Origin: Nemertoderma westbladi
Lineage: Eukaryota; Animalia; Xenacoelomorpha
DNA length: 41,873 bases
Reading direction: 5' to 3'
Assembly (NCBI GenBank): GCA_032718475.1
Contig: JAUCBJ010001325.1
Coordinates: forward strand, 1 to 41,873
Shown here one piece after another: positions 881 through 39,671 of this stretch. Both the position numbers and the translations under genes were made by a program. A model generated the notes under the pieces. It made no database searches. It had not been told where the DNA came from and worked only from the letters and a program-made list of their open reading frames with translations. How positions within the stretch are numbered: the stretch's first letter is position 1; each line of letters begins with the position of its first letter.

Positions 881-892
881 CCACATTTCTCC

Positions 893-3240: not shown

Positions 3241-4197
3241 TGTTCGCGCTTTTAGACCTTTAGCAGTTTAACCTGCCAAATTTAGGTGTCTTCTAGGTTA
3301 TAAATCGACTTTAGCCTATGACAAGTATTTGATACACATAAAACTACATTAGCCGAAGCCAGCCTATGCGCGACCATTCACCCACTGGATTTACCCGGGA
3401 GACTGGATTCGGATGCTCTGACCTTATTGCGGTGTAGGCCTACTGTATTATTCGATTGATCGTTAATATAATCTCTGACAAATATTATTCACTTTCGGGA
3501 AATATTAACAGTTCCTTTAGGACGTGGCGCTCTAAGTATGTAAACAGAGTTATGACTTACACTAAACACAACGGGATGGCTAATGATTCACGTATAAAGC
3601 GCATTCTTTAGGAGATGCTTTGTTATCTATCACACTCATGCACACTACCGCACAATGCTGCACACCGATCTGCCGACCTTCACTAATTTTAGTCACATAT
3701 AAAGAGAACAGCAACTGACACATGTAGGGCCTATGAAATAGCATTCAATTCACTCCAAAACCACTAAAATGTAAGTCGCAATTGCTATATGTAACCGGTC
3801 TCTCTAACCTTCAGTATATCAAGAAGATTGGGGCTTTCTGATTATTTATCGATATTCTCCAAATATAACAATATTCCATCAATTGATACAATTAATAACC
3901 GACAGTAGATAGCAGTAAAATAATGCGGTGCAAGGTATGTATAATTTAAGATGCTGAGTTAATGCGTGACTTGATATGATAACAGTTATACGTTTCTATG
4001 ATCAAAGCCGATCTAATGTTTGGCTAAAGTCTGAAACACAGAATAATTCCAAAGCTAAAGTACACATACAGAAGAAATGGCTTTTTATGTCCACTAAAAC
4101 ACCGGTACAGTAAGGAAACGGCTTTTTATGTCCGCTAAAACACCTACCGAGTACTTTGCGGGGAAAATGACTAGCTAATTCCGCAAAAGCCTTTACA
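3241..4197 (-). repeat. 3' LTR of copy 1 (957 bp; 228-bp U3 deletion)
   Basis: TGTTCGCGC...CCTTTACA on the + strand; matches 15656-16840 except about 12 substitutions and loss of 16471-16698. Confidence 0.95.
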
Positions 4198-4207
4198 CCG
4201 CTCCCAG
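4198..4207 (-). other. Polypurine tract (short, CTGGGAGCGG) adjacent to the 3' LTR
   Basis: Purine-rich run immediately 5' of the LTR TG on the minus strand; copy 2 has CTGGGAGTGG at 27413-27422. Confidence 0.6.
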
Positions 4208-4275
4208 AAAATGGGATTTAATTCTATAAAATATAAAAAATCACAGTTTCTAAAACATAAAAATACTCTAAACAG

Positions 4276-5824
4276 TTAGTCTTTCTTGCGCAGACGGCGT
4301 TTACGCAGTTTTTTGAGGCTAGCAAGAGTCCTTTTCTCTTTGGGGCGAGCCACTTTACTAGGAGGGCTATAACTCCTGGGTGAAGGGTGCAATACAATTG
4401 CATCGGAAGGTTTAGAATTACGGTCGATGTATCTGCCGGTCGAGGTACCTGGTTGATCTATATCAACCTCAGTGGAACGAGGTCGAACAACCTTGAGAGC
4501 GCATTTTAAGACAGCAGCTCTTATTGGTCCCTGACGATTCGTCTGCACAAGAGCGGTAGGTGGACCGTGTGTAGTGAGAAATTTCCTCGGTTTGATGATT
4601 CTTTTCAACTCGCGTTCTCGGGCTCTATCGGAATCGATATGCTTCTCCTCGAGCTGATTTTCCTCCACTTGTTGTTGGAAGCATTCGTCTAAAACTCTTT
4701 TAGAGTAGAGTCATCCAAGTTCGATATCTTCTTGGAGATTCTGGATTTCCTGATCGAACTGAGATAAAACTAATTCGTTTACCGCTTGGACTTGCTGCTG
4801 CAATTTACGTTTCTCTAAACAATTGTAGGTTCCTTTTCCGATCTTTTAACAAATAGTTTCCAACGTGTTTTGTACAACTCTCTCTTCCACCTCGGTGACA
4901 GGTTATATTGGGTTAAACCGGGACGATGATACGGTTGAATGGCGTTATTAGATGTCCGCGTCCCAATCCGGCTAGGTAAGATGGGTGAATATCTAGGGAG
5001 CCCACAACCGGAGTGCCACCGACTAACTGTTCGGGTAACACTAGATCTTTGAACAGTGAGTACAGTTCGGGAGGATCCGTTATACTATTAGGATCAAGAG
5101 TCTGAGGTCTAACTAGGAATGAGGAGGTCTGACCGAGTATTCCGGAACTCTGATCATAGGTTTATTTAAGGATCATTTGAGTCGAGCGAGCGTAGGTGAT
5201 ACATCGAACAAGTTTCGCTCGAAACTCCCGTAAATATAGCGAGTAAAACTGTGTTTAGCTCAACGTCTCCGCGGATGTTTATGTCTTTCCGTTTGTTGGT
5301 TGGGTCTTGGGCATTCATCGTAATAATACCAAAGACGCACGTCTTGTAGGGGAAACACGGGTGATATTTATTCGGTTTTACAATGTTTCTCTCAAGAATT
5401 CCAAATATACGTTGGAGTTACTGCGTTTATCCGGTTCTTTAACGTCTTCTCTTTCGAGTCGATTTCGAATAGAATTTTCGCATTCGATTTTCAGTTTATC
5501 GTTCCGACTCCGCTGGGTAGGATATTTAAATAGTACCATTTCCCTTTCGGTGTCGACATAGTCCGTATCGTGTAAATCGATAGGATGGCCAGTAGTTAAG
5601 AAGTCCATATACGTACCATTACGATGCGTATAGCAAGCAGTGAATTTTCGATAGTCCAATTCACGAGTGAGTTGCTCCTGGGACATTGGCGGTTCGACAT
5701 AACGAACATCGTCCTCTGTAGCAGTTGGACTAGCGTCGCCGCGTATTAAGCTATCAACAAACGCTTGCAACGGTAGAGTATATTGCTCCCTGATACCAAG
5801 ATCATCTTCTATCAACTCAGTCAT
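4276..5824 (-). pseudogene. Extra post-pol ORF (ORF3) of copy 1, disrupted; pieces 5378-5824 and 4276-4668
   Basis: Homologous to 27491-29044; the 148-aa N-terminal part and the basic C-terminal part are open, while the middle has stops. Confidence 0.65.
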
Positions 5825-6648
5825 AGCTGCTATATGAGTTTATCAATATTATAATGAGTTTATAATTAGGCTAGCAGGCGTCGCTGCCTACCCCTCACGG
5901 CCCCCGGACAGCGCAAGATCCTCAGCACTGATGCACTTTCGCCGATGTGCCTATCGCCAACATAGTAGCTGCACAACGACCACAACAACCAGCGCGAGTC
6001 ACTCCACTGTCCGTCCCAAGGGCTAAGATTTACTTCAGGTTATTACTTCAGAGTTAGGGCTACTTTCACAATTGCGACTCGCTACTGTAAACACACTTTA
6101 GTAGTAACATTCACCTATAAACGCACAAATTCCACACAACTGTCACAAACCGCACACATTCGGGCCATTTGTACGTTAGTCAAGTACCTTTCAGAATGCC
6201 ACATTATTATTGGGTATCCTTGGATACTAGCAGTGTGCTATTTATTCTTTATGCTATTCAATGGGGCAAGCCTTTATTGTTCTTTTAACTCACTTCTAAT
6301 TCTAGCATGGTTGTTGCCATGGTGACATTATGGAAAGCTAGCAGTAGAATTAGGGTAATTCTCATGCATACAGATCTGGGATGCTATTTAATAGTAATTC
6401 TTTAATTGTCAATATTCCTCTTTATACATGATTTTATGAATTTTATCGGCTATTGACTATATATTAGAGATTCTCGCACACTAATATACTTAATAGGGTG
6501 AATCTCCGCTCCCATGATCTATTAATTAATGGAATTTTGGGAATGTTATAAATTGTATAAAAATGACAATTTATCAAATTCATTAAAAGAAATGAATGTA
6601 AATTTATTCCCGTAAATTTTATTATTTAATATTAAAATAGACACAATT

Positions 6649-7000
6649 TTATTCCAGAACATATCTGGGGACTGGGATCCTTGATTCTAGGAAATTTGTC
6701 CTTTTAAGAGTATTGGTAAGTGCTACGATATCTTAATTGACTAGAATTTTAAAGGATCTAAATTTTGACAGATTTTAATTTATAGATTTTCTAGAGTTAA
6801 CTTGTAAGTAGTTACTCTATTGTATTTGTTTGACAGATTTTATAAATATTAATAGTTAATATTTAAGATGGGCACCGGTTTATTCCAGAACATGTCTGGG
6901 GACGTTAACCACTGATTCTAGAATTTTGTCTTTTAAGTATATCGGTGGGTGCCGCAATATCTTAATCGACTAGAATTACAGATGGTCAAAGGGTTTAACA
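6649..7000. repeat. Imperfect direct duplication (about 230-bp period) in the post-pol non-coding region
   Basis: TTTATTCCAGAACAT(A/G)TCTGGGGAC...GATTCTAG...ATATCTTAAT(T/C)GACTAGAATT at about 6649 and 6879; same pair in copy 2 at about 31536 and 31767. Confidence 0.8.
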
Positions 7001-7618
7001 GATTTATTTTGCATTTTACGCTACTGTTAAAGGGACATCACAGCTACTATATGTATTATTTAATATACGGTATGAGAGCAATATCGCAAGAAGCAATGTC
7101 AGTGAGAAGAGGCAAGTCGTTTCCAAGGTCTACCCAGAGCTTGGTTTAGCCGAGACACGAGGATCTGAATTTTGCATTCCTAATACTCTACTTACCAATA
7201 ATACTTGAATATAGTAGGAGCTTTATTGTACTTTAATAAGTACGGACATTTCATCTTACTGTAGTCACGTATTTATAATGTACTACGGACAGTAAGGAAA
7301 GAGAAAAAAGAATTATTTCTCGCCGTCGCACTAAATATATAATATATAAGTAATTAAGTAATAAGACTAATATATATTGCACTAATCTACTAAATAATCG
7401 CTAAAATAACATTCTACTAAATAAAATTAAAGAAAACGATTATAATAAAATTACATAATAATACATACATAAATATAAAATAATAAAAACAAATATTAAA
7501 TAATATAGTCACACACCCACTCCAGACGCTGTTACGTTGGGGAGTCCCTAGATGTTTGTTGGATTAGGGAGGTGGTCGTGGGAAGAGTATCTTGCCTTCC
7601 ATAGTTTCCGGACAGTTC

Positions 7619-9754
7619 TCAGTCTCTTTCCAGTAAACATAAACGACCAACTGGGCGATTGAGTTGTTGTGTTTCGAATACAATTCCAGGTTTCCTCTTT
7701 GTCCTGGAATAGTGACGATAGAAACATCGCTTCAAATACACGACGGCCTTACAAAGCCGATTCCAGGATCTATAGTGGTCCATCGCTCCCGGCAGGAGAG
7801 GTGAGAGTCCCGGCGAGACGTCTGATGTTCCAGATCTCCAGTCTCTCTCTCTGATCTCCACAACAGATCGGTTCGTGGTAGGGGAGTTTAGATCCACAGC
7901 GTCATCCCTGGCAATGTGTAGTACAGACAGATCTATCACGGGTTTAAATAACCTTGATTTACTCGTCCGGGTTTTAGGTTTGACTTTCTCCGCTCCCTTG
8001 GCTTGTCTAATCTCAGCCGTGGTAAGATGGGGAGGCCATTCATCTTCTTTACTTAGGAATTCGGGTCCACCTAACCAGTCTGGAGTATCTGTCAGTTCTT
8101 GAGGAGTTGCTCCTCTGGAAGCGATGTAGGCTAGATTAATCGTCTCGGGGCAATGTCTCCATTGATCTACATTAGAGTTAATATCGTCATTATCTGAGGA
8201 GTATGGTGTTCCCTCAGTTGTGGTCGTCTCTCCCTCACTGATGTCTTCTTCCCATTCACTCTCCTGATGGACCTGATCTTTGGGTAGCCTTTCTAGGAGT
8301 GTCCTACGGGAAGGTCCAGTGAGGTACCAACCTACTCTTGTTCTTCCCGCATAGGTTTGCAATGGTTGCGGTCGAGTAGGCCGTTTCTCTAATGTCTCAA
8401 GCGCCTCATGCGCATTTTGGCCGATGAGTATTTGCACTCCAGGGTAGTCTGTGTTGAATCTAGGTATCTTATGCTGCTGGGTGAAATAGTCCTCATCCCA
8501 GTTATAAGGTTCCACTTGGCTGGTAGCGAAGTTCTTTATCGCCACCATTTTTACTGACCTTATACTGTGTTCTCCTAGTTCATCCTGGGGGGTGGACAAC
8601 GCGCCTACATAGTAGTCTGTAGCTACTGTAGATTTCCAAACCTGCATAATTTCTGCAAGGTTCAACTTAGTTCGGAACTTGGGTTGTCCAGCAAAGATGT
8701 CTTCGGCTAGTTCTTTGTCGATGAATGTTCCTGTGCTGCCGGAGTCAAGGAGGGCGTTCACTATATAGCTCTTTTCGGGCCCGTGGACTCTCAACTGCAC
8801 TACGTGAAATTCTCGGATTCCTACGTTGGAAGTTGGCGCTTTCCAAGATGGTTGTCGGTCAGGAGTAGTTAGGGGGAGCTCACTATCGGTTTCTGTCTCA
8901 TACGTAAGTGCTCGATACACTGCGGTGTTTATTAAGTAACAGGATTCGTTTTCGTCGGAGAATTCATCCGTATAGAATCCTTCCATCTCAGAACTTTGGT
9001 CAGTGTCGTTCACATCACTGAATTGGACATGTAGTTCGGACTCACTTACCTGACTCCGGCTGTTTCTTTCGAATTCAGTGTGCAACAAGATATGATGTTT
9101 CGCGCTGCACTTAGCACACCTTGCGTCGGAGTAACAGGTTCGCCGTTGGTGTCCTCGTCTGAGGCAATTATAACATAACCGCTTATCCCACATGACTTCA
9201 CATCTATCTTTTAGTGACTTCCTTAGGAATTCATCACACACACTCAAACGGTGGGGCCCGTCGCACAGCACACATTTTGGTTTGATGTTACTTACCTTAC
9301 CTTGGGTAACGTTGTGCACACTCGTTCTTTCCTCGGGCTTTCTTCCATGAATTCTCTTAGGAGACGTAGGAGGAGTTTTTCTTACCTGTTCTCTCCTGTC
9401 ACTGGTTCGAGACTTGAATTTACTTACGTCTTTAGGCGCTTTGTTGACATAGTAAGATCTTTCAGTGTCTTTCCCGCTGTCCTCCTCTTGAGAGGCCTGG
9501 CTTTCGCCATCGTCGGTATAACACACTGGTGTTACCTTTCTCCTAGAAACGGGTTTCTCTCTTACCTTATTTTCCGGTGTCTTCTCTCTGGACTGCTTTA
9601 GGAGCTGTAATTTTACCTCTCCATCTAAGAATGACATGAGATCAGCCATGGTAGGGTCTCGTCGTTGTTGTTCCATGATATATAACACTTTCTTGTCCCA
9701 GCGTGTACCTACTCCACCCTTTGGTAAAGTAGAGGCCACGGCTCCAATAACCAT
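7619..9754 (-). CDS. Gag C-terminus (3 zinc knuckles) + aspartic protease fused in frame to RNase H tail/linker and integrase C-terminal remnant
   Basis: CVLCDGPHRLSVC, CYNCLRRGHQRRTC, CAKCSAKHHILLH; ALLDSGS; then DQWRHCPETINLAYIASRG (WxHxxGxxNPADxxSRG-like) and LNRPVGRLCLLE (BEL IN C-terminal motif). Confidence 0.88.
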   Translation of the reverse strand: MVIGAVASTLPKGGVGTRWDKKVLYIMEQQRRDPTMADLMSFLDGEVKLQLLKQSREKTPENKVREKPVSRRKVTPVCYTDDGESQASQEEDSGKDTERSYYVNKAPKDVSKFKSRTSDRREQVRKTPPTSPKRIHGRKPEERTSVHNVTQGKVSNIKPKCVLCDGPHRLSVCDEFLRKSLKDRCEVMWDKRLCYNCLRRGHQRRTCYSDARCAKCSAKHHILLHTEFERNSRSQVSESELHVQFSDVNDTDQSSEMEGFYTDEFSDENESCYLINTAVYRALTYETETDSELPLTTPDRQPSWKAPTSNVGIREFHVVQLRVHGPEKSYIVNALLDSGSTGTFIDKELAEDIFAGQPKFRTKLNLAEIMQVWKSTVATDYYVGALSTPQDELGEHSIRSVKMVAIKNFATSQVEPYNWDEDYFTQQHKIPRFNTDYPGVQILIGQNAHEALETLEKRPTRPQPLQTYAGRTRVGWYLTGPSRRTLLERLPKDQVHQESEWEEDISEGETTTTEGTPYSSDNDDINSNVDQWRHCPETINLAYIASRGATPQELTDTPDWLGGPEFLSKEDEWPPHLTTAEIRQAKGAEKVKPKTRTSKSRLFKPVIDLSVLHIARDDAVDLNSPTTNRSVVEIRERDWRSGTSDVSPGLSPLLPGAMDHYRSWNRLCKAVVYLKRCFYRHYSRTKRKPGIVFETQQLNRPVGRLCLLERD

Positions 9755-9842
9755 AGAACTCTGATATTCATGAGACTTACCTAGCCAATCTAATTGTCTA
9801 CAGATCTCCTGAATCTCATCGGAAAACTCTATAATCCCGCTG

Positions 9843-12209
9843 CTAATGAACTTTCGGGGGGGCTACCAATTTTGCATACAAATACCTAGCTATGTTATTC
9901 CTATTACCATACCTGATGTTTAGTGTATCCCAAACTTGTCTTAATCCATCTGGATGTCCAATAAACTTTAACGCCATTAACTTGGGAGATCCTTCCAAGC
10001 ACTCGATGAGGAATCTAAGTTTCTCTCCGTTAGATAGCACAGAGTTCTGTATGTTATCTTTGTAATATTCATTAAAAGGTAACCATTTCATCTCATCTCC
10101 ATTGAACTTGACGATCTCTCCCACCTTTACCGCTTGACGGGCTTCGGTTCTAGCCATTTGACGCGTAAAACTTTCTTGGGCCATCGTGTTATTTAATATC
10201 GAGTTATCGATATATAAATTTCTCGGATTATGGTCAGGTCTATATGGAATATCATTGTCAACAGGTTTATAATTACCCTTAATAGGGTTTACGATAGGAG
10301 TTTCCACTTCACTAGCAGTATAGATGCGTGTAGGCTCCACACCATGCGCATGAAATACTTCAGACCTAACAGGTTGACACATTGTTGCAGGGGGTGGTGG
10401 TATACCCTTTTGTGTATTTACTAATTTATCGCGTTCTAACGCGATACTCTGCTGCACTTCTTGCAACTCTAACCTACTTTCCCTTACTGTTCCCTTAAAC
10501 TGATGAACAGTCTCCTGCATCTGCCCGAGCAGGAGATTCATCCCCCGCCGCCCCTCATCCACCCACTCGACCGCCGAAGCAGGAGCCGCCAACATAGTAG
10601 CGGGCAGACGAGGGACAACGGGCGACAAATCATTGATGTTTCGCTCAGAGTCCAGGACAGGAACTGTCTCAGGGGCTGTTCTGCTGGGCACAGGTAGTTT
10701 AGTGCTATGCAAAGGGAATTTAGAGGTAGGTTCTGGGAGTACAGGTGTCTCTATCACCGAAGGGGTGGCTTCGAGAACAGGCCTAATTATTTCAGGCTCA
10801 TCTACTATAGTAGGGAGTCTTGCTGCCCTAATAATTTGGTCTGTGGGTTCTGTACTACCTAAGTCTGTACTAGCTAGTTGCCTTCTAACAGCTGGGGGCA
10901 AATCAGGCAATTTCTGACGGTGAGGCATTCTTCTACATCTGTTGGAACGAGATCTATTTCCTCCGCCCTCAGGATCGGTGGTATCGCCTTCATCCGATGA
11001 TGTAAAGCCCTGTCGCTTGGGGGTGGATCGACTTATCATCTGCCACTGAGTAGCTGTTCTCTGTTTATCTATGTAGTCTTGCTTCTCTTGCAGATTTTCC
11101 AACTCTAGTTGGGTGGTCTCTTCAGATGCTCTCCATTCTGCTTCTGCCACTGCTATCTTTCTTTCCGCTTCTGCCGCTTTTCTTTCCGCTTCTGCCACCT
11201 TTCTTTCCACTTCTGCCGCTGCCTCTGCCGCTTTTCTTTCCACTTCTGCCGCTGCCTCTACCGCTTTTCTTTCCACTTCTGCCGCTTTTCTTTCCACTTC
11301 AGCCGCTTTTCTTTCCGCTTCTGCCGCTGCCACTGCCGCTGCTGCTGTCTTTCTGTCTTCTATACGTTTTTTCTTTACTTGTTCTTCTTGGACCCTAGCG
11401 ATGCGGCTGCTTTCATCAAATTTAGCTTGGTTCGCAGCTAACATTTCCGCATCTATTGCGTCCAGCACAAACTTGGCTCCTTCACTATTAGGGCGAAGTC
11501 CAGCCAGCCGTCTCCTCAACTCTTCATCACCTAGAAATCGTTGATAGTCTGACAGATAGATGTCAATAGCGTCCCTCTGCTGCGGTTTCTCTGCTGTCCC
11601 TTCGCTTTCCACTTGAGAAAAGGTAGCGTCTGTTGATTCTCCATGGGTTGAGCGCTCAGCCAGCTGAGATTTCCACTGGGCCGTTCCTTGAACCTTGAGA
11701 CCCACCCGCTGGAACCAAGTCTTTATGGCAACTTGCAACGATGTGTCTTGTCTTCTTTTCGAAGCTTCCTCAAAGGACGATAGGATTAGGCTGATTCTTA
11801 GAATTCTTTCTCGAACTTGATAAAGCAGCTCTCCCTGCTCTTGAGGTCCTTGGGGTTGTTGAAACAGTTGTTCCTCTAATCGCTCCAAAGAGCTGAAGAA
11901 TCCCTGTACATATCCTGCTGCCGACCTCTTCCACACAGCTGGATCACTAGTGTCTTTTGTCACTCCCATCCTGTGTATGTCTTCCCAGGCAGCTTCCGAT
12001 AAGTCAAACGGGAGTCCGGGTCCGGGGAAGTTCCATTGCGACTCGACAATAGACTTCAGTTCCTCCCTTGTGTATCCCGCATAACTGTCCTTGGTCGATC
12101 GCTTACTTCTTGCCCAATCAATTTGGTGTTCCTCCACCGCAATCAATACCCGAGTGAGTACGGCTGCAGGAAGAATGAGAAGGGGATCCGAATAAACCGC
12201 ATCTGCCAT
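9843..12209 (-). CDS. BEL/Pao Gag N-terminal/central part with coiled coil and DUF1759-like domain; separated from the downstream ORF by a 1-bp insertion in a G run near 9856-9862
   Basis: KFNGDEMKWLPFNEYYKDNIQNSVLSNGEKLRFLIECLEG...VWDTLNIRYGN; copy 2 reads through this junction (ORF 37267-38409). Confidence 0.85.
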   Translation of the reverse strand: MADAVYSDPLLILPAAVLTRVLIAVEEHQIDWARSKRSTKDSYAGYTREELKSIVESQWNFPGPGLPFDLSEAAWEDIHRMGVTKDTSDPAVWKRSAAGYVQGFFSSLERLEEQLFQQPQGPQEQGELLYQVRERILRISLILSSFEEASKRRQDTSLQVAIKTWFQRVGLKVQGTAQWKSQLAERSTHGESTDATFSQVESEGTAEKPQQRDAIDIYLSDYQRFLGDEELRRRLAGLRPNSEGAKFVLDAIDAEMLAANQAKFDESSRIARVQEEQVKKKRIEDRKTAAAAVAAAEAERKAAEVERKAAEVERKAVEAAAEVERKAAEAAAEVERKVAEAERKAAEAERKIAVAEAEWRASEETTQLELENLQEKQDYIDKQRTATQWQMISRSTPKRQGFTSSDEGDTTDPEGGGNRSRSNRCRRMPHRQKLPDLPPAVRRQLASTDLGSTEPTDQIIRAARLPTIVDEPEIIRPVLEATPSVIETPVLPEPTSKFPLHSTKLPVPSRTAPETVPVLDSERNINDLSPVVPRLPATMLAAPASAVEWVDEGRRGMNLLLGQMQETVHQFKGTVRESRLELQEVQQSIALERDKLVNTQKGIPPPPATMCQPVRSEVFHAHGVEPTRIYTASEVETPIVNPIKGNYKPVDNDIPYRPDHNPRNLYIDNSILNNTMAQESFTRQMARTEARQAVKVGEIVKFNGDEMKWLPFNEYYKDNIQNSVLSNGEKLRFLIECLEGSPKLMALKFIGHPDGLRQVWDTLNIRYGNRNNIARYLYAKLVAPPKVH
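11135..11350 (-). repeat. Coding 21-nt heptad repeat (KAAEVER/KAAEAER) in gag
   Basis: Repeated TTCTGCCGCTTTTCTTTCC(A/G)C on the + strand; shorter version at about 39185-39310. Confidence 0.85.
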
Positions 12210-12516
12210 TTTTGCTCAGCGCTCGGGTGTCAGCTCTACAGTATCCGCTGTCAGGCCACTGAGAAATAAGTTCTCGGCTCGGGTGTTGCTGCTGTTTAAC
12301 AGCTGCTTCTTGGTCACGCTTGACTTGGGCCCGAGTGCCTATGATAGACCTACGGTGTTGGACTAGCCTAGGGTCTGATACCACTACTGGAGGGATGATC
12401 TTTCTTACAGTAGGAGGTGAGTTGAACTTCGGTCTCACACGTTCCACACTCCTGTCTGGATCACAGATGGTTGTATCTAGGAGACTGTCTGACAGGTTTT
12501 GCTTTGTGTCAGACAT
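12118..12516 (-). CDS. Upstream ORF overlapping the gag start; possibly the frameshifted true Gag N-terminus
   Basis: ATG-initiated 132-aa ORF beginning where the AT-rich leader ends; the gag frame upstream of 12209 is open apart from one TGA (possible CGA>TGA). Confidence 0.45.
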   Translation of the reverse strand: MSDTKQNLSDSLLDTTICDPDRSVERVRPKFNSPPTVRKIIPPVVVSDPRLVQHRRSIIGTRAQVKRDQEAAVKQQQHPSRELISQWPDSGYCRADTRALSKNGRCGLFGSPSHSSCSRTHSGIDCGGGTPN

Positions 12517-12644
12517 GTTTGTTTGTACAGTTGAATGCCTACTGCTATAATTACAGTTAAAGCAAGTCTAATAATTCAGTATCACTGTTAGCCTAGTAAT
12601 TAATTACCGATATCGTTACTCTATGTAACGTGATATATATACAA

Positions 12645-13030
12645 TATATTAGAATACCGGTATACACTTATAGTATATATAAGTATTATTACGGATTAGG
12701 TTTGTCACAGAATACCGGTATATAATTTCAGCACAAATATATAGAAATATATAATAAGCCTATCGTGAATACCGGTATACAGCTTACACTTATAGTATAT
12801 ATAAGTATAATTATAGACTAGAAATTAATTACAGAATACCGGTATATAATTTCAGCACAAATATATAGAAATATATAATAAGCCTATCGTGAATACCGGT
12901 ATACAGCTTACACTTATAGTATATAAGTATAATTATAGACTAGAATTAATTACAGAATACCGGTATATAATTTCAGCTCAAATTTATAGAATAAATATAA
13001 TAAGACTATTGTAAATACCGGTATGTCAAT
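12645..13030. repeat. Tandem repeat in the 5' leader: seven ~60-bp units (alternating, ~120-124-bp higher order) anchored on palindrome ATACCGGTAT
   Basis: AATACCGGTAT at about 12653, 12711, 12768, 12835, 12892, 12955 and 13014. Confidence 0.88.
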
Positions 13031-15643
13031 TATTTTAGAATAATTGAATTTCTGAATTTTAGGGGTTACTTGGTTACTTTACTTTACTTTATTACCGTTA
13101 TTTAAGCAGTAGTCCAACTGATATTAAGACCTAATTGTTGTATGACAGGCCTACTATTTTATAAATCGGTTTGAGTTGATTTATAATATATATATATATA
13201 CCCTTTTATGGGTTTTGTCAATGTATGAAACTAGAACGCCATCAAGATGGCTTTAAACGAACCTGTCTTACACAGACTCCAAGAAACAGATGGGATTGGA
13301 AGATGCAAACCAAGAATGACTTGCATCAACCAAAAAACTGCCTCCCATCTAATGTAATACACATTCGCCTAGGCAAACAAATCATAATCACAATTACTAC
13401 GATGATGTGTGAAATGGTATCCATATCCGCAACCTGAGAAACGGCCCAAAAGAGCAGTTTATTCTGCGGAGGGGTCTTTTCTGTATTAGATAAATAAAAT
13501 AAAGAACACTATAATTACAGTATTTATACCTGATACATTCTCAGTTAGCCTAATAAAAACATCGGAGCAACCAATATAATGTACATGTACAAGCATCCTA
13601 TGAAAGTTTGTGAAATGTTCCCTTAAGTCTACCCAACAGCCGTTGGTACCCGGCTGGCAGCCACCCTGGTTCAGTTTTATGGTTTTGTTAGTTTAATCGA
13701 CAGCTGTTGTAAACGTCCCAGATATACAAAACCTACTAAGCCTTTGCATTACAATTGAGCTTAGCCTAAGTTGATGACAGTATTATAACGATGACAATTA
13801 GGCCCTATAGATACATACGATATATAAATGATGTACTGCTTGACATTACACTAACTGGCTGAATAGAGATAGAACTATAATAATACGTTTGGCATTCTGT
13901 CAGATTTCAGTAGTAAGTAACCTCATAATAATTGCTAAATATCAATCACCTGAAAAACATTTCAAGCAAGGGAGTTGTGGGTATTTAATTTTGCGTTCAA
14001 TAATGTTGAAAATATGCAAATATTTCGAATATCGCACTTCGAATCGTTCCCAACTTTTTTATTCAACAACTAGACAACAATTGATAAATACTTGCGTTTA
14101 CAATTTTACAATGCATGCAAGTGGTTTCAAGCCATTTGGTGAACATACATAGTGAGTGATATAGTGACATATAGTGAGTGATATAGGTAAATATATCCAT
14201 CGTGTTTTTGCCGGCCTCAGCTTTAGACAAAAACTACCCAGTCTAAAGACAGGTTCGTTATAAATGTTATTATTTCTGGGAAGGAGTCACTACACAGAAG
14301 CTGTACGCTCTCAGTGAAGTGCTACCTATTGTTTTGGACACTAAAACAAATAATTCTACTTGCCTAAGTTACTTATTACTACAAATTACATACAATTGCA
14401 GGGTGAGATTACAATCTCTAAATAAACACAAAAATTACACGTACGAATTTTTAGGGTTAATTTTACAGGAAATCTACAAACCCGCCTAACAAGGAGTTAG
14501 AATATCTGGTTATTACAAACGGACAGGATACTACGGTATTTGAAAGTAATAAAGCAGTAGTAAATATATTGCGTTGTCCAGATAGGAAAAATACCACCGT
14601 CTGACGACTTATAGCCGTAGCGCTATAAGTACTACATTATGTATCACGGAGTGTTCCTACCTAGAAGTTAATTACCGCAGCCTACCAGAGCCAACGTGCC
14701 TATTAACCACCTTACAACACAAATATACTGCCTACACACTAATTACCTTCGGAAAGCACTGTACACTAAACCCTAAATTAGGTACAAGTACTTATACAAC
14801 AAATAACCAGCAGTTAAAAATACTTGTACAGCTAAAAGAAAAACGGTATCCGCCGGAGTGACTAGAGCATAAAATCACCAGTCTTTACCTACGCCAAACA
14901 GCCCTGATGTAGTACCGGGGTTAATTTAACTATAACGGTATGTATAACAAGCACAATTACTATAGGAATAAACTTGGGGTTATGAATGTTGCGAATAATC
15001 GCATAAACTCTGAATAATAAATATTACGCTACCCTTACAGACTACACAAACAAAATACAGACCAAACGCTGGCAGACTACTATCAAGCCTAAATAAACTA
15101 CAGTATATGCAGACTCCGAAATGGTTAGTTAGTATGCGTTCTAACCGAGTAGTACGACTTATTCTTTCGGGGGGGGGATTTACCTTACAGCACTGGAAGC
15201 CCCTACGTTCCTAACTAGTACTTTATCGGACATACACTCTACACACACTGCAATCTCTTCAGGCTTAACAACAGCCAGACAACAATCCAGCCTACCAATT
15301 ATCTGTACAATCTGAGCAGGCTTACACGCCTTCTGTTCAATATTAACTTTCAAATAAATAAAACTGACAGAAATAGGCCTAAGTAAAATCTCAATAAAAA
15401 CCAGGCGTCCCCGATTAAATATTAAGACCTACCGGTATATAATTATCAAAATCGAATAATACTGCTGTACCTGTACTGCTGTAAGTACCGGTTCGGGTGG
15501 TTAGGCAGTCAGGCCTACTGGTTACCGGTCGACCGGTACCTTTTACCTTTATTGCTTACTTTGCAATAAAGAAGCAATAGCTGTTATTGTTCTTACCAGA
15601 ACAATAGTAAACTGTATTTATTGCCTACACTGCAATCAGAAGA

Positions 15644-15655
15644 TATAACTGTTAT
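15644..15655 (-). other. Primer binding site position: ATAACAGTTATA, not tRNA-like, complementary to LTR 16394-16405
   Basis: Abuts the 5' LTR end; no TGG; exact reverse complement inside the LTR; identical in copy 2 (39660-39671). Confidence 0.7.
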
Positions 15656-16840
15656 TGTTCGCGCTTTTAGACCTTTCGCAGTTTAACCTGCCAAATTTAG
15701 GTGTCTTCTAGGTTATAAATCGACTTTAGCCTATGACAAGTATTTGATACACATAAAACTACATTAGCCGAAGCCAGCCTATGCGCGACCATTCACCCAC
15801 TGGATTTACCCGGGAGACTGGATTCGGATGCTCTGACCTTATTGCGGTGTAGGCCTACTGTATTATTCGATTGATCGTTAATATAATCTCTGACAAATAT
15901 TATTCACTTTCGGGAAATATTAACAGTTCCTTTAGGACGTGGCTCTCTAAGTATGTAAACAGAGTTATGACTTACACTAAACACAACGGGATGGCTAATG
16001 ATTCACGTATAAAGCACATTCTTTAGGAGATGCTTTGTTATCTATCACACTCATGCACACTACCGCACAATGCTGCACACCGATCTGCCGACCTTCACTA
16101 ATTTTAGTCAAATATAAAGAGAACAGCAACTGACACATGTAGTGCCTATGAAATAGCATTAGATTCACTCCAAAACCACTATAATGTAAGTCGCAATTGC
16201 TATATGTAACCGGTCTCTCTAACCTTCAGTATATCAAGAAGATTGGGGTTTTCTGATTATTTATCGATATTCTCCAAATATAACAATATTCCATCAATTG
16301 ATACAATTAATAACCGACAGTAGATAGCAGTAAAATAATGCGGTGCAAGGTATGTATAATTTAAGATGCTGAGTTAATGCGTGACTTGATATGATAACAG
16401 TTATACGTTTCTATGATCAAAGCCGATCTAATGTTTGGCTAAAGTCTGAAACACAGAATAATTCCAAAGCCGGTGTTCTGGCATCAGGAAAAATGGTAAA
16501 CATAAACCATAATGCATTGCGCGATTTCCCGGAGGTTTCTGTACAAATAAAATGAAAATTGCTCTGATTGGTCGACCGAACAAAGAACAAAGAAAAAGTT
16601 ACACGTGGACATATCAGCTGATAGATGTCGTCATCTGAACTGCACTGTATCAAGAGTATTTTGGCTTATTGCGACATAAAATCGCTAGTTATGTCCGCTA
16701 AAGTACACATACAGAAGAAATGGCTTTTTATGTCCACTAAAACACCCGTACAGTAAGGAAACGGCTTTTTATGCCCGCTAAAACACCTACCAAGTACTTT
16801 GCGGGGAAAATGACTAGCTAATTCCGCAAAAGCCTTTACA
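15656..16840 (-). repeat. 5' LTR of copy 1 (1185 bp)
   Basis: TG...CA termini, followed by TSD AATAG. Confidence 0.95.
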
Positions 16841-26224: not shown

Positions 26225-27412
26225 TGTTCGCGCTTTTAGACCTTTAGCAGTTTAACCCGCTAATTTTAGGTGTCTTCTAGTTTATAAATCGACTTGAGCC
26301 TATAACAAGTATTTGTTGCATATAAGATATAAAGTTACATTAGCCGAAGCCAGCCTTTGCGCGACCATTCACCCACAGTTAAGGGAGACTGGATTCGGAG
26401 GCTCTGACCTTATTGCGGTGTAGACTTACTGTATTATTCGATTGCTCGTTACTATAATATCTCTGACAAATATTATTTACTTTCGGGAAATATTAACAGT
26501 TCCTTTAGGACGTGGCGCTCTAAGTATGTAAACAGAGTTATGACTTACACTAAACACAACGGGATGGCTAATGATTTTCGTATAAAGCGCATTCTTTAGG
26601 AAATGCTTTGTTATCTGTCACACTCATGCACACTACCGCACACTGCTGCACACTAATCTGCCGACCTTCACTAAATTTGATCATATATAAGGAGAATAGT
26701 AACTGACACATGTAGGGATTATGAAATAGCATTCAATTCACTCCAAAACCACTATAATGTAAGTCGCAGTTGCTACAGGTAACTAGTCCCTCTTACCTTC
26801 AGTATATCAAGAAGATTGGGGTTTTATGATTATTTATCGATATTCTCCAAATATAACAACATATCCATCAACTTATAACAATCAATAACCGACAGTAAAT
26901 AGCAGTAAAATAATGCGGTGAAAGGTATGTATAGTATGATATGGGCTGCGATAACAGTTATACGTTCCTATAATCAAAGCCGTCGAATGTTTGGCTAAAG
27001 TCTGAAACTCAGAATAATTCCAAAGCCGATGTTCTGGGGCTCAGGAAAAGGTAAACAAAAACCGTCATGCATTGCGCGATTTCCCGTAGGCTTCTGTGCA
27101 AATAAAATGAAAATCGCTCTGATTGGTCGAGTGAGCTGAACAAAGAGAGTTAAGAAAGCTCCACATCGACATCAAAATCAGCTGATAGATTTCGTCATCT
27201 GAACCACACTGTATTAAGAGTATTTGGCGTATTGCGGCATAAAATGGCTTGTTATGTCCGCTAAAGTACACATACAGAAAAAATGGCTTTTTATGTCCGC
27301 TAAAACACCTACACAGTACTTTGTGGGAAAAATGGCTTGTTATGTCCGCTAAAACAACTAAACAGTTCATTGCGGAGAAAAATGACTGGTTATATCCGCA
27401 AAAGCCTTTACA
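26225..27412 (-). repeat. 3' LTR of copy 2 (1188 bp)
   Basis: About 8 substitutions relative to 39672-40859, counted by eye. Confidence 0.96.
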
Positions 27413-27490
27413 CCACTCCCAGAAAATGGGATTTAATTTTATAAAATATAAAAAATCACAGTTTCTAAAATATAAAAATACTCTAAACAG

Positions 27491-29044
27491 TTAGTCTTTC
27501 TTGCGCAGACGGCGTTTACGCAGTTTTTTGAGGCTAGCAAGAGTCCTTTTCTCTTTGGGGCGAGCCACTTTACTAGGAGGGCTATAACTCCTGGGTGAAG
27601 GGTGCAATACAATTGCATCGGAAGGTTTAGAATGAAGGTCGGTGTATCCGCCGGTCGAGGTATCCGGTTGATCGGTATCAACCTCAGTGGAACGAGGTCG
27701 AACAACCTTGAGAGCGCGTTTCAAGACAGCAGCTCTTACTGGTCCCTGACGATTCGTCTGCATAAGAGCGGTAGGTGGACCGTGTGTAGTGAGAAATTTC
27801 CTCGGTTTGATGGTTCTTTCCGACTCGCGTTCTCGGGCTCTATCGGAATCGATATGCTTCTCCTCGAGCTGATTTTCCTCCGCTTGTCGTTGGAAGCATT
27901 CGTCCAAAACTCTTGCAGAGAGTAGAGTCGTCCAAGTTCGATATCTTCTTAGAGATTCTGGATTTCCCGATCGAACTGAGATAAAGCTAATTCGTTTCAC
28001 CGCTTGGACTTGCTGCTGCAATTTACGTTTCCTCCAAACAATTGTAGGTTCCTTTTCCGATCTTTTGACGAATAGTGTCCAATGCGTTTCGTACAACTCT
28101 CTCCTCCACCTCGGTGACAGGTTGTATCGGGTTAAACCGGGACGATGATACGGTTGAATGGCGATATTAGATGTCCGCGTCCCAATCCGGCTAGGTAAGA
28201 TGGGCGAATATCTAGGGAGCCCACAACCGGAGTGCCACCGACTAATTGTTCGGGTAACACTAGATCTTTGAACAGTGAGTACAGTTCGGGAGGATCCGTG
28301 ATACTATTAGGATCAAGAGTCTGAGGTCTCACTAGGGAGTGAGGAGGTCTGACCGAGTATTCCGGAACTCTGATCATAGGTTTATTTAAGGATCGTTTGA
28401 GTCGAGCGAGCGTAGGTGATACATCGAACAAGTTTCGCTCGAAACTCCCGTAAATATAGCGAGTAAAACTGTGTTTAGAGCAACGTCTCCGCGGATGTTT
28501 ATGTCTTTCCGTTTGTTGGTTGGGTCTTGGGCATTCATCGCAATAATACCAAAGACGCACGTCTTGTAGGGGAAACGCGGGTGATCTTTCTTCAGTTTTA
28601 CAATGTTTCTCTCAAGAATTCCAAATATACGTTGGAGTCACTGCGTTTATCCGGTTCTTTAACATCTTCTCTTTCAAGTCGATTTCGAATAGAATTTTCG
28701 CATTCGATTCTCAGTTTATCGTTCCGACTCCGCTGGGTATGATATTTAAATAGGACCATTTCCCTTTCGGTGTCGACATCGTCCGTATCGTGTAAATCGA
28801 TAGGATGACCAGTAGTTAAGAAGTCCATATGCGTACCATTACGATGCGTATAGCGAGCAGTGAATTTTCGATAGTCCAATTCACGAGTGAGTTGCTCCTG
28901 GGACATTGGCGGTTCGATATAACGACCATCGTCCTCCGTAGTAGTTGGACTAGCGTCGCCGCGTATTAAGCTATCAACAAACGCTTGCAACGGTAGAGTA
29001 TATCGCTCCCTGATACCAAGATCATCTTCTATCAACTCAGTCAT
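27491..29044 (-). CDS. Extra post-pol ORF3 of copy 2, in three overlapping frames (28598-29044, 28132-28560, 27491-28096); unknown protein with basic C-terminus
   Basis: ATG at 29044; conserved in copy 1; CxxC in YYCDEC; ends in KKLRKRRLRKKD about 80 bp before the 3' LTR. Confidence 0.65.
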
Positions 29045-29623
29045 AGCTGCTATATGAGTTTATCAATATTATAATTAGTTATAATTAGGCTAGCGGGCGT
29101 CGCTGCCTACCCCTCACGGCCCCCGGACAGTGCAAGATCCTCAGCGCTGATGTACTGTCGCCGCTGTGCCTATCGCCAACATAGTAGCTGCACAACGACA
29201 ACAACAACCAGCGCGAGTCACTCCACTGTCCATCCCAAGGGCTTAGATTTACTTCAGGTTCTTACTGCAGAGGTAGAGCTACTTTCACAACTGCGACTCG
29301 CTACTGTAAACACACTTTAGTAGTAACATTCACCTATAAACGCACAAATTCCACACAACTGTCACAAACCGCACACATTCGGGCCATTTGTCCTTTAGTC
29401 AAGTGCCTTCCAGAATGCCACGTTATTATTATGTATCCTTGGATACTAGCAGTGTGCTATTTATTCCTTATGCTATTCAATGGGGCAAGCTTTATTGTTC
29501 TTTTAACTCACTTCTAATTCTAGCGTGGTTGTTGCCATGGTAACATTATGGAAAGCTAGCAGTAGAATTAGGGTAATTCTCATGCATACAGATCTGGGAT
29601 GCTATTTAATAGTAATTCTTTAA

Positions 29624-31284
29624 CGCAATAATTTTTATTGTCCGTTTAAATCCTTTTTTTGTCCTTTTTTTTTATTTTTTATGTCCTCCAAAAGTCTAAT
29701 GTTAGGTTCCATGCTACCGGTTTCTCTACTGCTGTTCTCTCAGGCTATCAGTACCGGTATTAGTATATATAGCACTATTTTGCTGTATTGTATGTACAGA
29801 TGTAGGTATAGAGCAGGTATTTCTGTATTTTAGTACCGGTACCGGCACCGGTACTGCTATAGGCCTACTGTGTAGCCTACCATTTAAATACGGTAATGGT
29901 AGGCCTACCGGTTGTGCTAATAAATTTTAAATAATTGATAGGCCAAACTGGATTGCAGGATTGTGGAAAATGTGGATATACCTTTCACATAATTTAGGCC
30001 TATTACTGTATTAGTTTTATAATCAATAATGGATCATGACTACTGTCTGAGTAGTGTTACGGTTAGCGGCACCACTTCTTCCAACAGCACAGATCAGTTC
30101 ATAAACTCATCCGTACTCGAAAAAACTACTTATACATGTTACATGGTAAAGTGACTGTTTATTGTTTTGGTTAGAAAATCCGGCCTCTGTAACCTGCTCC
30201 TTTCCCTCAATTGGTAATGTTATCGTTTATTGTTTTGGTTAGAAAATCCCGCCTCTGTAACCTGCTCCTTTCTCTCAATTGGTAATGTTATCGTTTATTG
30301 TTTTGGTTAGAAAATCCCGTCTCTGTAACCTGCTCCTTTCCCTCAATTAGTTAAATGATCGTTTATTGTTTTGGTTAGAAAATCCCGCCTCTGTAACCTG
30401 CCCCTTTCCCTCAATTAGTTAAATGATCGTTTATTGTTTTGGTTAGAAAATCCCGCCTCTGTAACCTGCTCCTTTCCCTGAATTGGTAAATTGACCGTTT
30501 ATTGTTTTGGTTAGAAAGGCCCGCCTCTGTAACCTGCCCCTTTCCCTCAATTAGTTAAATGATCGTTTATTGTTTTGGTTAGAAAATCCCGCCTCTGTAA
30601 CCTGCTCCTTTCCCTCAATTAGTTAATTGATCGTTTATTGTTTTGGTTAGAAAATTCCGCCTCTGTAACCTGTCCCTTTCCCTCAATTAGTTAAATGATC
30701 GTTTATTGTTTTGGTTAGAAAATCCCGCCTCTGTAACCTGCTCCTTTCCCTCAATAAGTTAAGTGATCGTTTATTGTTTTGGTTAGAAAATCCCGCCTCT
30801 GTAACCTGCTCCTTTCCCTCAATTAGTTAAGTGATCGTTTATTGTTTTGGTTTGAAAATCCCGTCTCTGTAACCTGCTCCTTTCCCTGATTTAGTAAAGT
30901 GACTGTTTATTGTTTTGGTTAGAAAACTCGGCCTTAATCTGCTCCTTTCCATCAATTGGTAATTGTTTTTGGCTATAAAATGAGTGTTTTGCTACGTCAT
31001 GTGGTAATCGATTATCGACAACAACCACAAACTATTAAATATAGAGTCTTTTTACCACAGGCGCATATGGAAATCTATCTCATAGTCTATAAATCATGGA
31101 ATCATAGAATGTTTTGGCACAGGCATAGTGAAATCAACTGTCTGACAGTTTGAAGAAATACATACATAAAAAGTCATTAAAAAGACAATAAAAGTTATTA
31201 AAAGGACAACAAAAGTCATTATGCATAATTCGTAAAAAAAAAGGACAAAAAAAGTCAAATAAAAGGACATATAAAATCACTGCC
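29624..31284. mobile_element. Non-autonomous Mutator/MULE-like DNA transposon nested in copy 2
   Basis: Absent from copy 1 (empty site near 6397); 9-bp TSD ATTCTTTAA (29615-29623, 31285-31293); imperfect TIRs of about 50 bp rich in TTTTGTCCTTTT / AAAAGGACAAAA. Confidence 0.85.
30150..30960. repeat. 68-bp minisatellite, about 12 copies, inside the MULE-like element
   Basis: GTTTATTGTTTTGGTTAGAAAATCCCGCCTCTGTAACCTGCTCCTTTCCCTCAATTAGTTAAATGATC starting at 30157, 30225 ... 30905. Confidence 0.95.
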
Positions 31285-32415
31285 ATTCTTTAATTGTCAA
31301 TATTCCTCTTTATACATGATTTTATGAATTTTATCGGCTATTGACTATATATTGGAGATTCTCGCACACTAATATACTTAATAGGGTGAATCTCCGCTCC
31401 CATGATCTATTAATTAATGGAATTTTGGGAATGTTATAAATTGTATAAAAATGACAATTTATCAAATTCATTAATAGAGATGAATTTAAATTTATTCCCG
31501 TAAATTTTATTATTAATGTTGGAATAAGCACAATTTTATTCCAGAGCATGTCTGGGAACTGTGATCCTTGATTCTAGGAAATTTGTCTTTTTAAGAGTAT
31601 CGGTAAGTGCTACGATATCTTAATCGACTAGAATTTTAAAGGATCTAAAATTTAACAGATTTTAATTTATAGATTTTCTAGAGTTAACTTTTAAGTATTT
31701 ACTCTATTGTATTTGTTTGACAGATTTTATAAATATTAATAGTTAATATTTAAGATGGGCACCGGTTTATTCCAGAACATGTCTGGGGACGTTAACCATT
31801 GATTCTAGAATTTTATCTTTCAAGTATATCGGTGGGTGCCGCGATATCTTAATCGACTAGAATTACAGATGGTCAAAGGGTTTAACAGATTGATTTTGCA
31901 TTTTACGCTACTGTTAAAGGGACATCACGCTACTATATGTATTATTTAATATATGGTAGGAGAGCAATATTGCAAGAAGCAATGTCAGTGAGAAGAGGCA
32001 AGTTGTTTCCAAGGTCTACCCAGAGCTTGGTTTAGCCGAGACACGAGGATCTGAACTTTGCATTCCTAATACTCTACTTACCAATAATACTAGAGTATAG
32101 TAGGAGCTTTATTGTACTTTAATAAGTACGGATATTTCATCTTACTGTAGTCACGTATTTATATTATGATACGGACAGTAAGGAAAGAGAAAAGAATTAT
32201 TTCTCGCCGTCGCACTAAATATATATAATATAAGTAATTAAGTAATAAAGACTAATATATATTGCACTAATCTACTAAATAATCGCTAAAATAACATTCT
32301 ACTAAATAAAATTAAAGAAAACGATTATAATAAAATTACATAATAATACATACATAAATATAAAATAATAAAACAAATATAAAATAATATAGTCACACAC
32401 CCACTCCAGACGCTG

Positions 32416-36162: not shown

Positions 36163-37301
36163 GTTTCATTTTCCATAAGGAGGTCGATGGTATTCTCCTC
36201 GTCGAATAGTTGATGAATATCGTCATTATCTGAGGAGTATGGTGTTCCCTCAGGTGTGTTGTCTCCCTCACTGATTTCCTCTTCCCATTCACTCACCTGG
36301 TAGACTTGTTCTTTAGGTAGCCTATCCATGAGAGTTCTATGGGAAGGTCCAGTAAAGTACCAACCTACTCTAGTTCTTCCCGCATAGGTTTGCAGTGGTT
36401 GCGGTTGAGCAGGCCATTTCTCTAATGTCTCAAGCACCTCATGCGCATTTTGGCCGATGAGTATCTGTACCCCTGGGTAGTCGGTGTTGAAACTAGGTAT
36501 CTCCTGCTGCTGGGTGAAATCGTCTTCATCCCAGTTATAAGGTTCCACTTGGCTGGTAGCGAAGTTCTTTATCGCCACCATTTTTACTGACCTTATACTG
36601 TGTTTTCCTAGTTCATCCTGGGGGGTGGACAACGCGCCTACATAGTAGTCTGTAGCTACTGTAGATTTCCAAACCTGCATAATTCCTGAAAGGTTCAACT
36701 TAGTTCGGAACTTGGGTTGTCCAGCAAAGATGTCTTCGGCTAGTTCTTTGTCGATGAATGTTCCTGTGCTGCCGGAGTCAAGGAGGGCGTTCACTATATA
36801 GCTCTTTTTTAACCCGTGGACTCTCAACTGCACTACGGGAAATTCTCGGATTCCTACGTTGGAAGTTGGCGCTTTCCAAGATGGTTGTCGGTCAGGAATA
36901 GTTAGGGGGAGCTCACTATCGGTTTCAGTCTCATACGTAAGTGCTCGATACACTGCGGTGTTTATTAGATAACAGGATTCGTTTTTGTCGGAGAATTCAT
37001 CTGTGTAGAATCCTTCCATCTCAGAACTGTGGTCAGTGTCGTTCACATCACTGAATTGGACATGTAGTTCGGACTCACTTACCTGACTCGGGCTGTTTCT
37101 TTCGAATTCGGTGTGCAATAAGATATGATGTTTCGCGCCGCACTTAGCACACCTTGCGTCGGAGTAACAGGTTCGCCGTTGGTGTCCTTGTCTGAGACAA
37201 TTATAACACAACCGCTTATCCCGCATGACTTCGCGTCTATCTTTTAGGGATTTCTTTAAGAATTCCTCACACACACTTAAGGGGCCCGTCGCACAACGCA
37301 C
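36105..37301 (-). CDS. Gag zinc knuckles + aspartic protease (frameshifted piece of gag-pol)
   Basis: CYNCLRQGHQRRTC, CAKCGAKHHILLH, ALLDSGS; continuous with upstream gag in copy 1. Confidence 0.88.
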   Translation of the reverse strand: MRCATGPLSVCEEFLKKSLKDRREVMRDKRLCYNCLRQGHQRRTCYSDARCAKCGAKHHILLHTEFERNSPSQVSESELHVQFSDVNDTDHSSEMEGFYTDEFSDKNESCYLINTAVYRALTYETETDSELPLTIPDRQPSWKAPTSNVGIREFPVVQLRVHGLKKSYIVNALLDSGSTGTFIDKELAEDIFAGQPKFRTKLNLSGIMQVWKSTVATDYYVGALSTPQDELGKHSIRSVKMVAIKNFATSQVEPYNWDEDDFTQQQEIPSFNTDYPGVQILIGQNAHEVLETLEKWPAQPQPLQTYAGRTRVGWYFTGPSHRTLMDRLPKEQVYQVSEWEEEISEGDNTPEGTPYSSDNDDIHQLFDEENTIDLLMENETWQNQVNLCHLIHLITTMN

Positions 37302-38409: not shown

Positions 38410-38447
38410 TGTTACAGGGGGTGATGGTATACCCCTTTGTATATTTA

Positions 38448-39441: not shown

Positions 39442-39671
39442 CCGGTATATAATTATCAAAATCGAATAATACTGCTGTACCTGTACTGCTGTAAGTACCG
39501 GTTCGGGTGGTTAGGTAGTTAGGCCTACAGGTTACCGGTCGACCGGTACTTTCGACTTTATTGCCTATGTTGCAATAAATAAACTAGAATAATGTTATTG
39601 TTCTTACCAGAACAATAGTAAACTGTATTTATTGTCTACTGTGCAATAAAGGAAAAATCTATAACTGTTAT

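Follow-up and report, generated by a model that had tools for sequence, protein, structure and literature searches.

A putative self-priming clade of BEL/Pao retrotransposons, with primers predicted to be joined by splicing in most readable relatives

The window (the whole stretch of 41,873 nt from Nemertoderma westbladi that was analysed) contains two BEL/Pao copies, E1 and E2, which both lie on the minus strand and are both broken. Sequence comparison makes it quite likely that a fragment of their own RNA serves these elements as the primer of minus-strand DNA synthesis. Such tRNA-independent self-priming in a BEL/Pao element had been proposed in an earlier note from the window alone, and the comparison across families supports it. 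The earlier note did not anticipate that, in most readable relatives, the self-match is found only across a predicted intron. On the evidence of these sequences, it is probable that a broad marine-invertebrate BEL/Pao clade gave up tRNA primers and has its primer built by the spliceosome, which would be the third independent origin of self-priming and the first one licensed by splicing. The splice-built primer of the relatives is the most novel part; self-priming as such is known from Tf1.

E1 and E2 have the ends expected of BEL/Pao elements. Their LTRs begin and end with TG..CA, target-site duplications flank both copies, and a short purine-rich tract precedes the 3' LTR. The main features are as follows.

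3241..16840, minus strand: whole element E1, flanked by a 5-bp target-site duplication
15656..16840, minus strand: E1 5' LTR, 1185 bp, TG..CA
3241..4197, minus strand: E1 3' LTR, 957 bp, 98.7% identity with the E1 5' LTR
9843-12215, minus strand: E1 gag ORF, with DUF1759
26225..40859, minus strand: whole element E2, flanked by a 5-bp target-site duplication
39672..40859, minus strand: E2 5' LTR, 1188 bp
26225..27412, minus strand: E2 3' LTR, 99.3% identity with the E2 5' LTR
32416-36165, minus strand: E2 pol ORF, with Peptidase_A17, Integrase_H2C2 and DUF5641

The LTRs of E1 and E2 share about 89% identity, and the E1 3' LTR is missing about 237 bp upstream of the 12-mer described below. The Pfam domains above cut-off (DUF1759, Peptidase_A17, Integrase_H2C2, and DUF5641) are those of BEL/Pao. 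The protein search gave 143 matches at E<=1e-3, and PF05380 was present in all 120 of the matches listed; the best BEL/Pao protein matches reached up to 43% identity, and the best named ones came from marine invertebrates. The Pfam search found no chromodomain in the window elements, and thus not the Pol of a Ty3/gypsy chromovirus. E1 and E2 are BEL/Pao members that probably work like Tf1, not members of the Tf1/sushi group.

The two copies are damaged in different places. In E1, the leader measures about 3.4 kb, and pol is broken through deletions, with parts absent. E2 has its gag spread over several frames, and the gag start and most of the leader are absent. A gag N-terminal extension of about 240 codons and a long leader (11481-15428) are present in E1 and missing from E2. 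E1 and E2 have in common the 3.4-5 kb that separate pol from the 3' LTR (4198-7690 and 27413-32410). As Pfam matched none of the ORF remnants 3' of pol, no env gene is claimed. A 68-bp tandem array lies in E2 (about 30010-31057), with a related inverted copy near 22030-22093; E1 sits inside a long satellite array (832-3240 and 16851-19183) with a main unit of 26 bp.

The 12 bases directly after the 5' LTR (sense ATAACAGTTATA) are the exact reverse complement of a 12-mer that occurs once in each of the four LTRs, with no further copies elsewhere in the window. The positions are listed below.

15644..15655, minus strand: E1 PBS, non-tRNA type, at offset 0 from the LTR end
16394..16405, minus strand: 12-mer of the E1 5' LTR, exact complement of the PBS, with the predicted 3' end of the self-primer at 16394
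3979-3990, minus strand: 12-mer of the E1 3' LTR
39660..39671, minus strand: E2 PBS, identical to the E1 PBS
40398..40409, minus strand: 12-mer of the E2 5' LTR
26951-26962, minus strand: 12-mer of the E2 3' LTR

Self-priming of the Tf1 type is recognized by a perfect complement of at least 10 nt at an offset of 0-5; here 12 of 12 bases pair at offset 0. The coordinates and the exact reverse complementarity given in the earlier note hold in both copies, and the TG..CA ends and 5-bp duplications confirm its statement that the site abuts the LTR end. Its claim that a TGG-type PBS is missing was likewise borne out: there is no TGG in the first 12 nt past either 5' LTR, whereas the ICTV describes a PBS that pairs with the 3' end of a host tRNA. 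The missing tRNA-type PBS does not undo the protein-based BEL/Pao assignment. ARAGORN and Rfam searches found no tRNA or Rfam families in the window. Dinucleotide-shuffled LTRs reached a 12-nt match, counted at any offset of 0-6, in 6 of 5000 cases for E1 and 1 of 5000 for E2. The heteroduplex of the 12-mer with the PBS was calculated at -11.4 kcal/mol, and the self-dimers at -5.9 and -6.4 kcal/mol.

Two other claims about the 12-mer fared less well. The earlier note had taken its invariance between the copies, next to differing flanks, as support; the quoted flanking differences are correct, but the invariance is weak evidence because 29% of LTR positions begin a 12-mer identical between E1 and E2. 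The base just 3' of the LTR 12-mer and the 4 bases just 5' of it are also common to both copies. Pairing was said to stop after exactly 12 nt. This does not hold: E1 gains a G.U pair, and for both copies a further helix is predicted 5' of the core. A contig of run X1 has a collapsed leader and differs at 2 of the 12 PBS bases, with the LTR partner uncovered; this run comprises contigs only (share 0.10), its status as RNA is a guess, and its cover of 29 of 30 window bins leaves out the LTR 12-mer and yielded no start or end sites.

Relatives were collected using an alignment of 30 sequences as the query. This gave a first set of 79 loci from metagenome contigs, taken from the best 80 of 549 confirmed stretches, with 20 of the 64 parts of the metagenome contigs scanned; three scans of viral contigs gave no relatives. 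A locus was called split if its post-LTR site pairs over 10-16 nt with its own LTR only once a GT..AG intron is removed. The first set contains 29 split loci (22 families), 5 unsplit loci, and 1 of the tRNA type. Another 3 loci have one intron side on the contig and are compatible, 2 have no match, and 39 gave no result, most of them lacking an LTR or leader (12 were viewed by eye). The two loci in which no LTR self-match was found, L008 (1-240) and L068 (6600-7030), belong to an in-clade family with a non-TGG site; the 3' LTR of L068 appears truncated.

Thirteen loci with LTR ends from direct repeats were tested; L055 and L070 were left out as unclear, the end of L029 was set by eye at 10 nt short of the BLAST end, and the end of L059 was set after L063. 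No TGG site was found in 12 of them, and the post-LTR sequence was distinct for each family. A contiguous search gave only 6-9 nt in 11 of the 13 loci, often directly after a pyrimidine tract and AG. Once a GT..YAG segment was removed, these same 11 reached 10-15 perfect pairs at offsets of 0-4; L056 has an unsplit match of 11 nt, and L041 has a TGG site and a self-match of 4 nt. Any GT and any YAG were permitted, yet the donor chosen was of the GTAAG- or GTACG-type every time. Among nine families, shuffled LTRs reached the split score in 0-3 of 100 cases with any GT, and in 0 of 100 with strong donors. The 11 x 11 cross-family matrix gave 10-15 nt for own pairs, and 6 of the 110 foreign pairs reached 10. 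A further 18 split and 4 unsplit loci came from scans in which the LTR ends were inferred, and were accepted after the match was seen.

The 21 tabulated introns are 71-488 nt long; their acceptors are rich in pyrimidines, and 12 of them have GTAAGT. The sister loci L037 and L038 differ by a 168-nt intron, which L038 has and which is absent from L037 to the exact base; the removal is precise for a genomic as well as for a transcript-derived L037. An initiator-like AG just before the match was considered as the transcription start of the relatives and rejected: the AG is the splice acceptor, and the match crosses the donor. E1 and E2 represent the unsplit form, with no intron within the pairing stretch. 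A junction-built primer was also tried for these two elements and rejected, as the best junction matches were 8 and 7 nt at weak sites, against 12 nt unsplit.

The same query was used against genome contigs, giving a second set of 37 loci; the analysis covered 28 of them and left out 9 short ones. All 5 readable in-clade loci are split: L080, L082, L083, and L084 match at 11 of 11 positions across the intron (the LTR ends of L080 and L082 being inferred), and L081 at 10 of 11, with one mismatch. Seven loci of this set have TGG sites and self-matches of at most 7 nt; 6 of the 7 fall outside the clade by tree, and L115 is not in the tree. The LTRs of L109, L110, and L115 were placed separately, as flanking repeats confounded the automated detection. 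A TGG-type PBS was thus found in 8 fetched loci of both sets together. According to these controls, the search yields no matches at loci with a tRNA-type site. The loci L080-L116 are 37 animal-type BEL/Pao loci in contigs filed as bacterial or archaeal genomes, which are most likely host contamination of those assemblies.

The match covaries between families, as the earlier note had suggested checking. The 26 tabulated elements have 25 distinct cores, each of which matches its own post-LTR site. These cores are 10-15 nt long; 20 of 26 end in AC and 5 of 26 in AT, followed by C in 19 of 26, which suggests a shared predicted cut context. The core of E1 and E2 ends in AT followed by C and fits this context; the offset, length, and end context of the two window elements are all common to the clade. 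In the split relatives, only 3-9 nt of the core precede the donor, and the predicted introns end 5-8 nt before the predicted cut. Of 23 relatives, 16 have AATAAA or ATTAAA on the stretch from the core to the LTR end, whereas an upstream stretch of the same length has one in 2 of the 23; the core of the relatives therefore lies in R. The distance from the core to the LTR end is 726-738 nt in the window elements versus 74-216 nt in the relatives, and the window LTR contains neither AATAAA nor ATTAAA. The 14 nt 5' of the core pair with their own leader at a mean of -6.7 kcal/mol versus -5.1 kcal/mol for foreign leaders (p=0.002, the families not being independent). The own leader is top-ranked in 3 of 26, with E1 at 7/24 and E2 at 10/24. 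There is no own-leader preference on the 3' side of the core (p=0.73).

Phylogenetic analyses were quick or FastTree runs without bootstrap, and the RT/RNase H trees hold no Sinbad, Sparrow, Surcouf, Suzu, or Flow references. The branch of E2 is long and its placement weak; E2 falls with marine-invertebrate sequences and away from the insect and fish rows. With about 965 columns, E2 is sister to, or at the base of, the clade with all self-matching loci (support of 83, 92, and 75 in three trees), and the tRNA-type L041 lies outside this self-priming clade. With 495 columns, E2 groups weakly with L041 (support of 83), and the AU test did not reject this grouping (p=0.30). The unsplit loci are scattered among the split ones within the clade, which suggests repeated intron loss. 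The unsplit state of E1 and E2 could be due to intron loss, as in L037 versus L038, or to a lineage that branched before the intron was gained. The long-branched unsplit element of the window may be a surviving pre-intron stage, not a loss. A separate origin of the self-match in E1 and E2 is also conceivable from these trees.

Several other features surround the core in the LTR and leader.

16406..16425 with 15625-15643, minus strand: predicted second helix, RNA 5' of the 12-mer with the leader 3' of the PBS
16567..16571 (in E2, 40569-40573), minus strand: CCAAT motif, 166 nt upstream of the 12-mer
16446..16712, minus strand: predicted candidate intron upstream of the 12-mer (donor 16712, acceptor 16446)
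40722 (donor) and 40449 (acceptor), minus strand: predicted candidate intron in E2
15450..15462 with 15860-15872, minus strand: second exact leader/LTR complement, 13 nt, kept in E2
15550..15643, minus strand: leader with a degenerate second LTR-end/PBS motif (15581-15592)

The second helix is not significant for E1 and E2 alone. The CCAAT motif, whose promoter role is inferred, is present in three of the four LTRs; the shortened E1 3' LTR lacks it. TATAA begins exactly at 16405/40409, and the same is found in all four LTRs. The candidate LTR intron, scored with a matrix built from the introns of 21 relatives, ends about 40 nt before the core. The gap of the E1 3' LTR falls wholly within this candidate intron, and both splice sites remain. 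The leader has two AATAAA signals (15622 and 15553), the second one inside a strong predicted hairpin in E1. Inverted repeats surround these signals (15550-15643 and 39560-39659), and both units are collapsed to one in the X1 contig. These leader repeats could yield short polyadenylated LTR-PBS RNAs or switch the access to the PBS. A GTAAGT donor-like site lies downstream of the 12-mer (15975 and 39995) and is kept in all four LTRs; there are also pyrimidine-rich AG sites just past the PBS. Together, these sites would possibly give a spliced mRNA without the PBS.

In the proposed mechanism, the transcription start would lie within the 5' LTR, probably at a point upstream of the 12-mer, and the 12-mer would fold back on the site beside the LTR end. 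Cleavage of the RNA would follow where the duplex ends on its 3' side (16394/40398), and would probably be carried out by the RNase H of the element, as Tf1 suggests by analogy. The RT would then extend the primer, copying U5 and the remaining R, and jump to the 3' R. In most readable relatives, a predicted spliceosomal intron splits the pairing stretch, and host splicing would join the primer. Given this split, a primer would form solely from the cap-proximal copy once it is spliced; the 3' copy, which stays unspliced, would transmit the intron without competing for the site. An intron 5' of the cut could be spliced and still inherited, because the sequence on that side would be lost along with the primer and restored from the 3' R after strand transfer; for an intron 3' of the cut, splicing would preclude inheritance. 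Cap-proximal introns splice more readily than a donor ending a multi-kilobase exon.

Two alternatives keep the self-match as the primer and differ in where the RNA starts or in which molecule carries it. Under the strict geometry of Tf1, which the earlier note had predicted, transcription would start at 16404-16405/40408-40409, and the first 11-12 bases would form the whole primer. The duplex length resembles the 11 nt given for Tf1 in the accessible part of PMC7175516. In E2, the primer:PBS helix reached P 0.57-0.93 only for RNAs beginning at the core or 1 nt ahead of it, and fell to P 0-0.18 when 100-200 nt of upstream RNA were added; global folding of E1 gave this helix P<=0.04 in 8 of 8 trials with any start tried. 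However, only 3-9 nt precede the donor in the split relatives, and a start at the core would therefore need a micro first exon of that length. The pairing 5' of the core favours the own leader and the 3' side does not, which also argues against this geometry. TATA-like boxes were matched in 9 of 21 relatives at inconsistent positions that do not fix the start site: L071 has TATATAA 31 nt before the core, as a start at the core would have it, whereas those of L051, L012, and L029 lie 133-165 nt upstream, and in the window the stretch 25-35 nt upstream of the core contains no TATA box. The strict geometry thus seems unlikely, and the sequences suggest that transcription of E1 and E2 probably starts further upstream than the 12-mer. 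Priming might also act in trans, with a short LTR transcript (spliced in the relatives) being co-packaged with the unspliced genomic RNA and priming it. The intron would be preserved in this case too, the poly(A) signals after the core in 16 of 23 relatives would make short R-only RNAs possible, and the 738-nt loop and poor cis folding of E1 would fit. The cis model, however, would already account for the retention of an intron that always lies 5' of the predicted cut, and priming in trans is considered rather doubtful.

The other alternatives deny the match a role as primer. A tRNA half or another small host RNA could prime the window element, with the LTR match being merely structural, for example in masking the PBS. 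Half-tRNA priming exists in Ty1/copia lineages, according to the accessible part of PMC6317226. The grouping of E2 with the tRNA-type L041 was not rejected, and the second LTR/leader complement is a case of long-range pairing here that has other causes. Against this, the 25 differing cores each track their own LTR, as no fixed host RNA could; the TGG-type elements show no such match, and E1 and E2 have the offset, length, and end context of the clade. A host RNA primer is therefore improbable. The match might finally be an accident, in which an AT-rich, near-palindromic promoter element recurs after the LTR. The 12-mer is near-palindromic and may resemble a Myb site; TATAA begins at its edge in four LTRs with CCAAT upstream in three, and the leader has one more copy of the LTR-end/PBS motif. 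However, few of the shuffled LTRs reached a 12-nt match, and the heteroduplex is far stronger than the self-dimers. An accident would leave the element without a primer, despite its target duplications and 98.7-99.3% LTR identity, and the relatives have the same geometry with unrelated sequences. This explanation is very hard to credit. Self-priming, probably by an internal stretch of the element's own RNA, is the preferred reading.

In the literature searched, neither self-priming in BEL/Pao nor a splice-built primer was found; supplements, Repbase, GyDB, and most subscription papers were outside its scope. The main texts of three BEL/Pao papers (PMC554778, PMC3118150, PMC6238403), as far as accessible, do not contain 'tRNA' or primer terms. 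The accessible parts of six further papers (PMC5445492, PMC3601003, PMC4558846, PMC12451622, PMC13524379, PMC6934838) do not report a self-priming BEL/Pao element. A self-priming clade would change the picture of the Belpaoviridae as host-tRNA-primed, and would be a further origin of self-priming in addition to Tf1/sushi and the plant TAR lineage, for which it is predicted. The splice-built primer, if true, would tie retrotransposon replication to host splicing, which would offer a control point to the host. It would also explain the persistence of an intron in an element that is copied via RNA. Since contiguous PBS searches are blind to split primers, such primers may explain LTR elements listed without a PBS.

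Another solution within BEL elements is the nematode Cer7, which has reportedly been proposed to encode its own tRNA-like primer; this would be different from the self-match found here. The Belpaoviridae are described by the ICTV as host-tRNA-primed, with an 18-nt PBS for tRNA-Arg or tRNA-Gly and a poorly understood replication (PMC8742986). E1 and E2 share with them the Gag-Pol domains, LTRs of up to 1.2 kb, and TG..CA ends; the window elements and their clade differ in lacking a tRNA PBS, and the window elements are 13.6-14.6 kb long versus 4.2-10 kb. The fungal GalEa elements and bivalve TRIMs likewise have no tRNA PBS and carry short inverted repeats near the PBS position, according to the accessible parts of PMC5445492 and PMC6934838. 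Their hairpin is local to the leader, whereas the partner in the window elements is in the LTR; for GalEa, the accessible text of PMC5445492 states that its authors found no LTR complement.

For the plant lineages Tcn1 (Ty3/gypsy) and TAR (Ty1/copia), self-priming is predicted in the accessible part of a survey (PMC6317226), and TAR extends the prediction to a second superfamily. The same criterion was used there, i.e., an LTR complement of at least 10 nt starting 0-5 bp past the 5' LTR. These elements belong to other superfamilies and plant hosts, and the contiguous BLAST criterion, as given in the accessible part of the survey, would miss intron-split primers. The closest parallel in function is found in Tf1 and Tf2 (Schizosaccharomyces pombe) and Tj1, for which self-priming has been described in the accessible parts of PMC7175516 and PMC4600332. 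In Tf1, according to the same parts, RNase H cuts between bases 11 and 12, and the primer consists of the 11 nt that begin the mRNA. E1 and E2 are similar to this Tf1/sushi group, as far as it is covered there, in having no tRNA PBS but a site complementary to about 11 nt of their own LTR RNA. However, the Tf1/sushi elements are of the Ty3/gypsy family, whereas the window elements have BEL/Pao Pfam domains. The Tf1 primer is the 5' end of the mRNA, whereas the primer of the window elements would probably be an internal stretch of R, with the core about 730 nt from the LTR end. Most readable relatives also have a predicted intron within the primer, a feature that the accessible texts do not describe for Tf1-type elements, and which would set this clade apart from them.
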